Shown here: positions 30,904 through 40,249 of the stretch, piece after piece
Layout of the letters: every line of letters starts with the position of its first letter
How positions within the stretch are numbered: the stretch's first letter is position 1
NCBI RefSeq assembly: GCF_039541115.1
Contig: NZ_BAABFP010000007.1
Span: 62,001 to 126,000 of the forward strand
Source: Angustibacter luteus
GTDB lineage: Bacteria > Actinomycetota > Actinomycetes > Actinomycetales > Angustibacteraceae
Direction: 5' to 3'
DNA length: 64,000 nucleotides
Program-made: the position numbers and the translations under genes
The notes under the pieces: model-generated
Database searches by the model: none
Seen by the model: the letters and a program-made list of their open reading frames with translations, nothing else
Told to the model about the DNA's origin: nothing

Positions 30904-33900
30904 TCACGTCCAGGTGTCGTCGGTGCCGATGCCCGCGTGGCTGTCGGCCATCTGCTCGGTCCACGCGGACCCGCCGTTGCCCAGGATCATCTCGTCGACG
31001 AACCCGATCAGGTGGACCGCGGAGCCGAACGCGCCCAGGCTCAGCCCGTGCCCGGTCTCGTGCGGGACGTCGCCGTCCGGACTGGTGTTCTTGGAGTCGA
31101 CGAACACGAAGTGGCCCATGTCGTAGGCGGTGTTGATCGGGTTGGCGTCAGAGAGCGCGCCGCCCTTCATCACGAAGCTGCAGGTCGCGGCGTCGAAGCT
31201 GATCGAGGTGATCGCCAGGCCCGCCACCTGGTTGCCGGTCACCCCGGCCAGGATCAGGTTGACCGCGAAGAAGGCCAGGCCGAGCCCGTTGACCAGCCAG
31301 GTGGTCGGCATCAACCAGCTGCTCCAGCCGAGGATGACCTGGTACGCGCCGTTCTGCCGGATCCCGTCGAACACGCTGAGGAACCCGATGACGCCCAGCG
31401 CGACACCGACGAACGGGCCGAACAGCGCGGTGGCGAACACCGCGTTCAGTCCCGCGTTGAAGCCGATCAGCATGCCCTTCATGAAGTCGCCGAACGCGGT
31501 GCCCTTGGCGGCCGAGGCCCCGGCGTAGCCGGCGATGGTCAGGCCGATGATCAGCCCGATCGCCAGCAACCCGAACCCGATCCCGCTGGCGAAGGCCGCG
31601 ATGGTCAGCACCGCCACGGCGATCCCGATGATCACCCCGACGATGCCGCCGAGCACCGTCCAGAAGCTGGCGCCGTCCGGGTCGACGTTGTTCACCGGGT
31701 CGTTGGCGCAGTAGGTGTACAGGTCCAGGCGGCGGGGGTCGTCCACGCCCTTCTCAGGCCGGTGCAGGTAGTAGCCGTCCGGGCTGACGAACCGCCCGAG
31801 CGTCGCGCAGTACCACCGGCGCTGGGCGTAGTACAGCTCCGCGTCGGCGTCCCACTCCTGGAACGCGAACACCTGCAGCGGCGCCTGGCCCGCGGCCTTG
31901 GCCGAGTTGCCGAAGGCGCGGTAGTCGATGCGCGCGATCCGGGTGCCCGCCGCGTCGGTGAAGAACGTCGCGCTGGCCCGCGGGTCGGTGTGGATCCAGT
32001 GCCGGGTACCGCCGTGGTCCACCGCCACCCGCAGCCCCTGCAGGACGACGTACCGGACCAGGACGCCGTCCCGGACCTCCGCGTACGGGCCGAGGAACAC
32101 GGTGTCGGTCACCACCGCGCCGGCGGTGACGGTCTTGCGCACCCGCGCCCCCCGGTGGTCGTAGCCGTAGTCGATCCGCGTCCCCGGCTTGTCAACGCCG
32201 ACCAGCTGGCCCTTGGCGTCCCAGCGCAGCGCCCGGCCGGGCAGCGCGGCCAGTCGTCCCGCGACGTCGTACGTCAGGTCGGACGGCGCACCCGCACCGA
32301 GCGCGAGGGTGTCCGGCCGGGTCGGGTGGTCGGCGTCGTCCGCGGTGAGCACCGCGCCGTCCTCGCCCTGGTCCAGCAGCGTGCGGGCCTGGTAGCCGAA
32401 CGCGGCGTCCACCCCGCCCGGTCGGGCGTCGGTGACCGCGACCAGCTGCCGCAAGGTGTCGTACGCGTAGGTCACCTGGCCGGTGGCGCCGGGGGTGGAC
32501 TCGTCGAGCGTGGTGCACTGCCCGAGCGCGTCGTAGCCGTAGGTGGCGTCCTCGAGCACCGTGCCACCCGGCCCCTCGGTCCGCTGGGTGGCGACCCGGC
32601 CGGTGCCCGGCGAGTAGGTGGTGGTGCGGACCGCCCCGTTGGCGTACGCCACCGACGTGGCCAGCCGGCGCGGCTCGTAGTCGATCGCGGTCAGCACCCC
32701 GGGCACCGACCGGACCAGCCCGTTGTCGTAGCGCTGGTAGACGACGTCGCTGCCGTCGGGCTGGACCAGCCGGGTCAGCTGCCCCAGCGCATCCCGCTCG
32801 AACGTCAGCAGGTACGGCGCGGCGTGCCCGTCCACCGCGTAGCTGCGGGTCGCGATCCGCCCCTGCGCGTCGTACCCGAAGGTCTGGCTGCCACCCGGGT
32901 AGGCGGCGGTGCGCAGCCGGCCCAGCCCGTGGCTGGCCACGTGGTCGTAGGTGTACGTCTCGCGCACGTCGCCGTCGACGGCGAACGACACGATCCGGCC
33001 CAGGCCGTCGTAGTCCGCGCCCATCACCGTCCCCGCCGGGTCGACGACCTGCACCGCGCGCCCGCGGGCGTCGTGCAGCGTGACCCAGGTGCCGGCGTCC
33101 CGGTGCGCGACCTCGACCCGGTTCCCCAGCCCGTCGTAGGCGTACCGGGCGACCACGTCGTGGTCGTCGGAGTGCACGGCCAGGTGCCCCGTCGCATCCG
33201 GCGTGTAGGTCGTGGTCACCGGGCCGTCGGGCCCGTCCTCGACGACCGCGACCCGCCGGTGCGCGGCGTCCATCCGGTCCAGCCGGACGACGCCCAGCGC
33301 GTCGGTGCTGGCGATCTCGAACGGGGTGTACCGGGTGGACGACGTCGCGCCGTCGTGGTCGAGCGTCTCGACCGGCCGGCCCTGGCTGTCGTACCGGAAC
33401 CGGCGGCTCGTGCGCCCGGCCAGGTCGGCCGGCGTCACCGGAGAGTAGGCGAGGTCGGTGCCAGTCGTCGGGTCGTACTCGGCGGCGACGTCGCCGAAGG
33501 GGGTGCGGACGACGTGCCCACTGACGATGACCCGTCCCGCGGTGAGCACCTCGCGGCGCTCCTGCTCGCGACCGAGACCGTCGAACACGATCGCGCTGTC
33601 CCCGGTCTCCGGCTGCCCGTGCCGCAGTCGGCGGCGGATCGCCACCACCCCCGGCACGGCGTCCGTGTAGGCGTACGTCCGGGACGGCAGCGCGGCCGTG
33701 TCGCCCGGCAGCACCACCGACGTCAACCGGCCCTGGGCGTCGTACCGCATCGACACCTGCGTGCCGTCCGGGTCGGTGACCTGCAGCGGCTGCCCGGTCG
33801 CGAGGTCCGTCAGCACCGTCGTGACGCCCTGCGGTGTCGTGGAGGTCGCCCGGTGCGTCCCGGTGGCGTCGAACGTGTACGTCGTGGTCTGCCCCGGCGT

Positions 33901-39700: not shown

Positions 39701-40249
39701 GACCGCGCGGATCGCCCGGGTGTAGCCCGAGACAGCGGCCTTGAAGTCGCCGGCCACGACGGCGCCGGCAGCGGCGCTGAGGACGCCGCGGACGACGTCC
39801 AGGCTGCTCGCGGTGCCCGCGTCCAGCAGCTCGGGCCGGCTGACGACCGCCTGGGTGTCGAGCGGTACGGGCCAGACGACGCCGGACGGGACGGCGCTCA
39901 GCGGCGGCCGGGTGCGGCTGGCCGACTCGGCGGCCATCGCGATGAACGAGGTGAGCATCCCCGGCTCGTACATGACCTCCCACAGCGGGTGCGAGGTGAC
40001 CTGCACCGGCAGGGTGGGGTGCGCGGTCTTGAGGATCAGGGCCTGCAGCTGGGTGTAGCCCCGGATCGCGATGCCCAGCTCGTCGTTGAGGTGGGCCTCG
40101 CGCGCGGCCGCGAGATCGCTCTGCACCTGTCGCTCGAAGGCGGACGCGGCGCCGTCCACCTCGTAGCCGTCGGACGCGATGGCGGTGGTCAGCACCGATC
40201 GCATGTCCTCGAGGTGGGAGTACTTGATCTCGTTGGCGTACGCCTTCAT
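36794..40249 (-). CDS. Compact Tc toxin subunit A-like protein (N-terminal TPR region, coiled-coil channel-like region, TcB-binding-domain-like C-terminus)
   Basis: TcA-like motifs YFFVIP, PPFSFEAL...AR, FLDLREFS..WY, LMQRAY..E, DVLGSDVLLRDI, FSLAQTFPSALRALRETG, DRLYPGFYLHKVRAV and FENNGAATMWRLELP. Ends 1 nt before the TcB/C start. Confidence 0.78.
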   Translation of the reverse strand: MKAYANEIKYSHLEDMRSVLTTAIASDGYEVDGAASAFERQVQSDLAAAREAHLNDELGIAIRGYTQLQALILKTAHPTLPVQVTSHPLWEVMYEPGMLTSFIAMAAESASRTRPPLSAVPSGVVWPVPLDTQAVVSRPELLDAGTASSLDVVRGVLSAAAGAVVAGDFKAAVSGYTRAIRAVGDNDPTLSAHLHQDLGLVLERSGNADAAQGQLQTAQELFTKVGSGEGQVSSLAALSGLLTRQGQVDKAQEVLNQAGELSRQLGIHELDIAGGVDVSSLPTPFRPGRGGAGEDADGAELDAGPALASAPNLPQPISQAATPTLQALAYVGDVRSTDVFTVVGQESATQISLTGDKAANLTALYETMAVTNDLSLLYVQALPAPTFVAYLPYIYFFVIPMSLGDCYLASGDYPSAEAAYLNALKYPYLNENVEVVQVWTRLAQTYVAWGDSVYRAAGDTAAAWPAAAAKYQLVVGADGSIPAASPLYADARFAGLKVRATAIAAAADPSSVDDNPTVALPLARARLRLGQIAAGQNFLGFAPDYLPPFSFEALQTSARYLAEHAGTMEQAYIQFKSQAENEEFRQDQMDQQVDLAAASVQLELDGVAQAQAGVQVAERSEDYATTQLTNAQDAADDFADVRWELEELTELDAWAQASAVDHDDEVKLTISGYDSFSSDHENRNTVLMRLAAQRVSLSDDLEQGRLDREVTAAQSYQAVAQAQVVQAQAGVAVAQQRVAVAQLQLGAAQANREFLDLREFSARHWYEMAQVMKGLAGDYLDMATSVAWLMQRAYSAETARDLHKIRLDYRNAGAGDVLGSDVLLRDIDFFTVDFLTSTRSKKAPIKVSFSLAQTFPSALRALRETGIAGLETTLEQLDRLYPGFYLHKVRAVEVQFVGVSSGSGVHGTLRNIGVSHFRAADGSVHDLVYPPDVMPLSLYDARTDAFVLRADPQQLRLFENNGAATMWRLELPLSTNEIDLAALLDVYLVISFDAFFDSALEGMVKASLPTTGTAARATSLRLQAPDELFFLRTQGTGDLTVAAADLPRTQKDLVRTSFTLRLSGDPATAASRTVRLTPASTGTELVLTTDADGLVQGAPVASLLGAGVADTFTVRITAADNPSLPVGPGGVPDLSGLDDVAVYQDYSFTWR

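Follow-up and report, generated by a model that had tools for sequence, protein, structure and literature searches.

One mechanism is described for the Tc (ABC) toxins studied so far: it combines a shell, a lock released by pH, a spring-like linker and hydrophobic loops, which pierce the membrane for the injection of a soluble, variable enzyme. Shell, linker, channel and TcB-binding domain are reported as common to all five TcA subunits studied by Leidreiter et al. (PMC6795518), and a review presents the pore-forming loops of TcA as hydrophobic, highly conserved and driving pore formation (PMC11435725). Type 3 ABC toxins consist of a single TcA gene and a fused TcBC gene (Low et al. 2025, PMC12705794), none of which is reported as structurally characterised. 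Here, a two-gene cassette is described from Angustibacter luteus, encoding a compact TcA-like subunit (gene A) and a fused TcB–TcC cocoon with its cargo (gene BC) in a window of 64,000 nucleotides (nt; contig NZ_BAABFP010000007.1, positions 62,001 to 126,000). The pair is built from Tc parts and should work at least partly like a Tc toxin, and its mechanism could well be a different one. The original prediction, made from the sequence alone, placed a gene of 1151 amino acids (aa) one nucleotide ahead of a gene of 1962 aa on the same strand, and the coordinates are as it gave them: a single base separates the TGA of A (36794-36796) from the ATG of BC (36790-36792). From this one-base gap between adjacent genes, co-translation of A and BC is inferred.

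The TcA-like coiled coil and TcB-binding C-terminus that had been predicted for A were both recovered. A profile of alignment A1 (106 rows: the query and 105 near-full-length relatives of A) matched XptA2 residues 2054-2372 at an E-value of 3.7e-7, and the TcA_TcB_BD match at residues 723-993 (E 2e-21) lies above the Pfam cut-off. The profile alone gave the XptA2 match, a single-sequence search of A against PDB sequences returning nothing significant. Foldseek with the AlphaFold2 (AF2) model of A listed 21 matches at E < 0.001, every one a TcA, with 12-15% identity and whole-chain TM-scores of about 0.18; such low scores mean that the structural match to TcA is local, and in a second look the structural alignment of the whole model was dominated by tetratricopeptide repeat (TPR) proteins. 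A search with residues 380-1151 returned 125 relatives, mainly 1050-1330 aa long, and some relatives of A carry the UniRef label 'Tc toxin subunit A-related'. The channel helices, placed by the model at residues 585-658 and 683-755, are full length and conserved.

The N-terminal part of A is of another kind. Pfam found no VRP1, neuraminidase or ABC_toxin_N domain in the protein and, judging from sequence and model, TPR regions occupy the place of the TcA shell: TPR_12 matched at residues 193-262 and TPR_2 at 403-425, and fold matches of Z 17-19 were obtained to the TPRs of LGN, kinesin light chain and Rap proteins. The model (predicted local distance difference test score, pLDDT, 85.6) also contains a disordered stretch at 270-317 and, at the position of the TcA linker after the second helical region, a coil of about 17 residues. 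The beta-rich C-terminal domain is also seen in several long environmental TcAs. A four-copy complex prediction of residues 745-994 scored 0.00 ('no answer'), which is evidence neither way. In two compact relatives (P0172 and P0178), the C-terminus is extended by about 200 aa that weakly match 3-keto-disaccharide hydrolase (lectin-like), a possible receptor-binding add-on.

The tip of the channel differs from that of known TcAs in both length and character. In the profile alignment, the hydrophobic loop of XptA2 falls on a shorter, charged segment of A, and in none of the 106 A1 rows did the 19-residue hydropathy of the tip exceed 1.6 (median 0.18). In a joint alignment, the best 19-residue hydropathy had a median of 0.22 among compact tips (22 of the 106 A1 rows), none of which reached 1.0, compared with a median of 1.41 among 30 long, ABC_toxin_N-bearing relatives, 25 of which were at or above 1.0. 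The tip spans 65 residues in compact A and 92 in the long relatives, about 27 fewer. Among broader compact representatives of at most 1400 aa that span the tip, 4 of 134 reached 1.0, and five neuraminidase-type actinomycete TcAs gave 0.98-1.29. The hydrophobic pore-forming loops by which a Tc toxin is recognised are therefore lacking at the channel tip of gene A, where about 28% of residues are charged and the modelled strands are 4-5 residues long, one of them with alternating hydrophobic residues. The earlier description of a stripped-down Tc machine needs correcting in that A is not merely trimmed: TPRs replace the shell and the tip is polar.

Gene BC has the predicted composition of an SpvB domain, an FG-GAP propeller and an RHS core followed by cargo, as seen with Pfam, and its closest solved relatives are TcdB2-TccC3 (7e-50) and YenB. 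TcdB_toxin_midN was placed at residues 603-711 and Rhs_assc_core at 1624-1707, so that, together with TcA_TcB_BD in A, every domain implied by the prediction was found; TcdB_toxin_midC was not detected in BC by Pfam. The core ends in PxxxxDPDG and carries the autoprotease residues R1667, D1672 and D1704, and the same aspartyl autoprotease motif (R, D, DxxG) is present in 51 of 54 relatives. A match of BC to the mosquito protein SGS1 was weak (E 0.009).

The cargo that follows DPDG has a mass of 25.8 kDa, an isoelectric point (pI) of 4.4 and a grand average of hydropathy (GRAVY) of 0.81, with HETGH as its HExxH motif. Its model (pLDDT 96.2, predicted TM-score 0.92) comprises seven helices, followed by a small sheet and by the helix that bears HExxH (cargo residues 198-215). 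E1934 and E1946 of BC (E227 and E239 of the cargo) are candidate further zinc ligands, each present in 41 of 48 aligned rows of cargo alignment A2, which was chosen for the presence of HExxH. On these sequence features the cargo is predicted to be a zinc protease. HExxH occurs in the cargos of 49 of the 54 relatives, one of the other five, which are likewise hydrophobic, being truncated, and by helix count 53 of the 54 extracted cargos are hydrophobic (L049 scored 0). All 50 HExxH cargos, the query included, have a pI of 4.1-5.9 and a size of 23-29 kDa, which fits the cocoon cargo range of 20-35 kDa reported in PMC6868009. Five loci (L056, L062, L066, L068 and L074) pair a compact A with a different cargo, glycine-rich and hydrophobic but lacking HExxH; a polar tip was measured in L056, L068 and L074, the last lying on a large Embleya plasmid.

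In 34 of 39 full-length comparisons with the query, the cargo had a higher identity than the shell, opposite to the pattern of a hypervariable region, and the hypervariable C-terminal cargo typical of Tc toxins is thus not seen among the BC relatives. A conserved hydrophobic HExxH cargo also makes an insecticidal syringe a doubtful reading of the locus. The cargo gave no Pfam, PDB-sequence or Foldseek match, a wide structural search returned only generic helix bundles (best Z 8.9), and a search of the Atlas only unnamed clusters. At two control loci with a canonical, hydrophobic-tip TcA, the cargo was hydrophilic and basic (GRAVY -0.42 and -0.48); the other three control loci had no cargo inside the stretch retrieved, so the control rests on two loci.

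Pairing of the two genes is conserved, as the original prediction had proposed. Compact A was located at 67 genome loci, several of them frameshifted, in 15 named phyla, with three loci archaeal, and BC follows in 63, with an estimated gap of -15 to +235 nt in 60 of these; three loci stop at a contig edge and one (L050) has no BC. Both TcA homology and co-occurrence with SpvB-RHS genes, whose absence would have counted against the prediction, were found. The family is not confined to actinomycetes, since it spans these phyla, haloarchaea included. At L050:10667-17119, the sole locus with room yet no BC, A is shortened, and downstream of it, in the opposite orientation, is a recombinase-like gene. 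One of the haloarchaeal cassettes is intact (L025) and two are fragmented (L058 and L059). No third conserved gene, whether upstream, for immunity or for lysis, emerged among open reading frames of at least 90 aa across the 67 loci. A and BC accordingly form a two-gene cassette, whose hosts come from soil, sediment and brine and include haloarchaea.

The cassette is patchily distributed, with a full match in none of five same-genus genomes and in one of 60 relatives. A TcB-binding domain occurs in 7 of 401 genomes of the phylum, and five of the other six are of the neuraminidase type. A 1506-aa frame (L156:2390-6907) has a TcB-binding domain and a hydrophobic tip, with no neuraminidase match and no BC within the 16 kb retrieved. 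When representatives at 50% identity were searched with a profile, 1492 proteins scored E 1e-30 or better, long TcAs and fragments probably among them, and the best 150 of the 1492 were examined; a search of viral contigs for relatives of A found none. In a tree of the TcB-binding region, unrooted and with rows picked by similarity to the query, 31 compact proteins lie on one side of a branch (Shimodaira-Hasegawa-like approximate likelihood ratio test, SH-aLRT, 96) and 20 long ones apart (100). The half-size A of a distinct subfamily is thereby upheld, with 1151 aa and a clade of its own. A further TcA-like lineage of 1350-2000 aa (P0266, P0277, P0285, P0287 and P0291) carries FG-GAP repeats before the channel and a tip that is more hydrophobic where measured; the three members included in the tree group as sisters of the compact clade. 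In P0284 the N-terminus is a peptidoglycan-binding domain, a hint that some TcA relatives may have bacterial targets.

The cargo was also found on its own. A metagenome search with the cargo alignment gave 70 loci, with the cargo fused to a BC shell in 31, standalone in 26 and indeterminate in 13, and compact A was present at all 19 fused loci with upstream DNA, some of which are near-copies. Core genes of extracellular contractile injection systems (eCIS) lie beside the standalone cargo at 9 of the 26 loci (6 of 12 among loci of at least 9 kb) and in none of 59 other stretches of at least 15 kb; several of the loci are near-copies, and the search queries were taken from four of the same standalone loci. 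Sheath, tube, spike and baseplate were confirmed by Pfam at six standalone loci. In a quick cargo tree with a midpoint root, one supported group, nested among the fused cargos, holds 18 of the 23 standalone rows, eCIS-linked genes appear in about four places and host phyla are scrambled. These standalone genes could be among the predicted eCIS toxins tabulated in PMC11297309. The standalone cargo of L119 stands directly after Tail_P2_I on the same strand and the L133 copy ahead of the sheath gene, while an unnamed membrane protein and genes with PASTA domains are found repeatedly near the eCIS-linked copies. At L115, tandem standalone cargos, one per HExxH subtype, follow ATPase and TPR genes (8447-9532 and 9695-10726). 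In the host genome, one sheath-like and one tube-like match on separate contigs, with no standalone cargo, gave no sign of an eCIS locus. The standalone cargo by eCIS, like the conserved HExxH cargo, the polar shorter tip and the TPR regions, was missed by the original prediction.

Table 1. Features of the cassette (window positions) and of standalone cargo genes (locus positions).
Feature	Residues	Position	Strand	Basis
Gene A, compact TcA-like subunit		36794..40249	-	1151 aa; AF2 model pLDDT 85.6
First TPR region, replacing TcA shell	A 148-265	39455..39808	-	TPR_12 E 5e-11; fold matches
Second TPR-like helical region	A 384-533	38651..39100	-	Pfam, AF2 model
TcA-type channel hairpin, helices of 73-74 residues each	A 551-798	37856..38599	-	Profile, model
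Polar acidic hairpin tip with short beta-hairpin	A 640-705	38135..38332	-	Alignments, AF2 model
TcB-binding domain TcA_TcB_BD (PF18276)	A 723-993	37271..38083	-	Pfam E 2e-21
Extra beta-rich C-terminal domain	A 1011-1150	36800..37219	-	AF2 model
Gene BC, fused TcB-TcC cocoon and cargo		30904..36792	-	1962 aa counted from ATG
SpvB/TcaC N-terminal domain	BC 32-190	36223..36699	-	Pfam
FG-GAP beta-propeller and TcdB_toxin_midN region	BC 239-713	34654..36078	-	Homologous to TcdB2, YenB
RHS/YD repeats of shell	BC ~998-1620	31933..33801	-	Pfam
RHS core with autoprotease residues	BC 1624-1707	31672..31923	-	Rhs_assc_core
Cargo, four strongly hydrophobic helices then alpha/beta HExxH domain	255 aa	30904..31671	-	Model pLDDT 96.2
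HExxH zinc-binding motif of cargo	BC 1911-1915	31048..31062	-	Sequence motif
AGGAGA, ribosome-binding-site-like, 5' of gene A		40255..40260	-	
Standalone cargo genes in or beside eCIS	~250-290 aa	L119:9839-10654; L133:428-1312; L118:6080-7012; L093:1510-2304; L125:5893-6732; L128:1107-1997		

Within the window, the GC content at third codon positions of the A and BC minus-strand frames (0.96-0.97) and their codon composition resemble those of the other genes, which identifies both as real reading frames. The start proposed for BC by the open reading frame finder is a GTG 24 codons before the ATG. No sigma-70 promoter or terminator pattern was found in the 220 nt upstream of gene A. An inositol-type sugar-catabolism cluster on the same strand (40374-51204; GFO/IDH/MocA oxidoreductases, IolB, a TIM barrel, an aldehyde dehydrogenase, a GntR regulator and TauE) ends 124 nt upstream of gene A. 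The genes on either side of the cassette (inositol-type catabolism, TauE, SDR and FAH) were judged unrelated to it.

At roughly even odds (about 0.5), the A-BC particle is a docking chute that hands a predicted membrane zinc protease to a target membrane. With its intact R/D/D motif and the precedent of Tc toxins, BC would cut off the 26-kDa cargo and shield its helices in the shell, and an RHS shell able to hold predicted membrane helices has been described in mosquito SGS1 (PMC9935623). By homology, A would oligomerise, probably as a pentamer, and bind the BC propeller, and the TPR regions and C-terminal beta domain would bind the target surface. Lacking a hydrophobic tip, a neuraminidase lock and a long linker, A may act as a chute of about 110 angstroms rather than as a pH-triggered syringe, and the membrane-inserting element would be the cargo itself, which once inserted would cleave envelope or membrane proteins. 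Moving membrane insertion from A to the cargo is the simplest reading in that it explains both the polar tip and the hydrophobic cargo. The best guess for the target is a microbe, given where the hosts live (soil, sediment and brine) and the association of the cargo with eCIS. As for release of the particle, no signal peptide was found, nor a conserved lysis gene among open reading frames of at least 90 aa at the surveyed loci. More tentatively, the system could be a Tc-derived membrane-protein insertase, a soluble particle that holds a multi-helix zinc protease without a known fold in its RHS cocoon and installs it in the membranes of other microbes without a pore of its own; with similar caution, such a device could occur widely among bacteria and archaea, and contractile injection systems could also have recruited its payload. 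A HExxH effector of an eCIS, SalCis21, offers a parallel in that its periplasmic toxicity depends on the motif (bioRxiv 10.1101/2025.06.01.657177).

Several points weigh against the docking chute. The toxicity of SalCis20 is independent of its HExxH (bioRxiv 10.1101/2025.06.01.657177), the label 'protease' for the present cargo depends on the motif and two conserved glutamates with no family or fold match, and proteolysis is not universal given the five of 54 cargos without HExxH. A conserved immunity gene is absent, which would be odd for an antibacterial, and the model gives no account of how the polar tube is triggered or how a cell wall is crossed. At 17 of the 26 standalone loci, eCIS core genes were not seen; many of these are short contigs, yet the same holds for 6 of the 12 of at least 9 kb. 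The small hydrophilic-cargo control and the origin of the eCIS queries in four of the tested loci count on the same side.

The strongest competitor, with a clearly smaller share of the probability, is that A is still a true syringe whose tip pierces by another route, the cargo crossing the membrane as in canonical Tc toxins. Short beta-hairpins might assemble into a barrel, or acidic residues might be neutralised at low pH; the full-length, conserved channel helices and the alternating hydrophobic residues on one strand of the tip hairpin would suit such a route. Strands of 4-5 residues are however short for a bilayer, the tip is highly charged and the neuraminidase lock is absent. The cargo raises a similar difficulty, as Roderer et al. 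(PMC6868009) reported a need for a pI of about 8 or more, compared with 4.1-5.9 in all 50 cargos here, and found that a sticky amphipathic cargo stalled in the cocoon. This is tempered by Song et al. (PMC7861908), according to whom 36.5% of hypervariable regions have a pI below 7 and acidic cargos could be released.

It is unlikely, though conceivable, that the particle is no weapon and instead supplies the producing cell or its kin with a membrane protease for regulation or envelope remodelling. In favour of this, the cargo is conserved and not polymorphic, no immunity gene recurs, and the standalone copies, mostly without an eCIS core gene in view (17 of 26), resemble ordinary small membrane proteins. 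A conflict system is nevertheless the better fit to the patchy spread, with no match in the five same-genus genomes, and to the scrambled host taxa on the cargo tree; moreover, a 190-kDa cocoon is a costly way of packing a self-protein, and the cargo has a link to another injection machine.

A further, very unlikely reading takes the locus as incomplete: gene A would be the second half of a Type 2 (split) TcA, the first having been lost or being encoded elsewhere. It is suggested by the length of A, which resembles the 1157- and 1159-aa second halves of two other actinomycetes. Those halves have hydrophobic tips and ABC_toxin_N and neuraminidase genes directly upstream, whereas the 100%-complete host genome gave no match to ABC_toxin_N (the added positive control rang in 2 of 2 long-TcA actinomycetes), nor to VRP1 or neuraminidase (the built-in search controls were silent). 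Of three long TcA relatives used as queries, two matched gene A only in the host genome and one matched nothing; as there is no conserved upstream gene at the 67 loci, hence none of the TcaA/YenA1 type that would supply a shell, and the N-terminus of A is TPR, a split TcA is largely refuted.

TPR domains are often chaperones. This counts for a comparably improbable reading, in which A and BC are co-inherited without assembling, BC being a lone RHS toxin and A having a separate job such as that of a chaperone, as does the description of SpvB-propeller-RHS proteins without TcA as a TcdB/TcaC pathway (PMC3482391), but the TcB-binding domain is kept in A, and the direct adjacency of A and BC holds in the survey from either side.

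Compared with known systems, the cassette shares with Type 1 and 2 toxins (Photorhabdus TcdA1-TcdB2-TccC3, Xenorhabdus XptA and YenTc) the channel hairpin, the TcB-binding domain, the SpvB/propeller/RHS cocoon, the aspartyl autoprotease motif and the cargo size. It differs in an A without helical shell, knot region, neuraminidase lock, receptor-binding domains or hydrophobic pore loops and with a coil of only about 17 residues before the channel, in a cargo that is conserved, hydrophobic and acidic rather than hypervariable, soluble and often basic, and in hosts that are free-living microbes, archaea among them. The likeness to Type 3 lies in the single TcA with a fused TcBC and in the lack of known receptor-binding or chitinase-binding domains; in contrast to Type 3 TcAs, gene A has neither neuraminidase nor VRP1, is under half the length, carries TPRs and a polar tip and belongs to a separate clade. 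Another actinomycete has the single-A, fused-BC layout too, there with an A of 3158 aa. Because the shell and lock domains, the hydrophobic tip and the hypervariable cargo are all lacking, the pair was not placed in Types 1-3. The suggestion of a possibly undescribed subfamily stands for the compact, TPR-bearing A, of which literature searches, with most subscription papers outside their coverage, found no description, but not for the gene layout, known from Type 3 (PMC12705794).

Two published genome surveys would exclude the compact family by design. As reported in PMC12705794, every TcA in the set of Low et al. has neuraminidase and VRP1, and 54 strains with long indels and a further 33 without neuraminidase were removed; the required neuraminidase-like domain puts the compact family outside their tree, and members may be among the removed strains. 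The database dbTC omits B-C fusions (PMC7861908). Zhang et al. described SpvB-propeller-RHS toxins with HExxH domains in many phyla, and the terms TcdA, TcaA and TcaB are absent from the available text of that paper (PMC3482391).

Outside the Tc toxins, SGS1 encloses predicted membrane helices of about 230 residues in a Tc-like RHS shell, where they follow an autoprotease site (PMC9935623); it differs in being eukaryotic and a single chain, with no TcA partner and another cargo. The HExxH effectors of eCIS and type VI secretion systems (SalCis20/21, the VgrG2b C-terminus and DUF4157) and Tox-MPTase resemble the cargo in their motif and their association with injection machines, and SalCis20/21 are likewise reported without an immunity gene (bioRxiv 10.1101/2025.06.01.657177), whereas the present cargo has no Pfam match and an N-terminal membrane helix bundle without a fold match. 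It is a candidate effector family without a known fold, common to two unrelated delivery machines. The compact family widens the range of Tc-like systems to free-living bacteria and haloarchaea, and it is relevant to the two-component ancestor that has been proposed for ABC toxins. By keeping the channel and cocoon of the studied Tc toxins, dropping their shell, lock, linker spring and hydrophobic loops, and carrying a conserved membrane protein, it provides a test of which Tc parts are essential.

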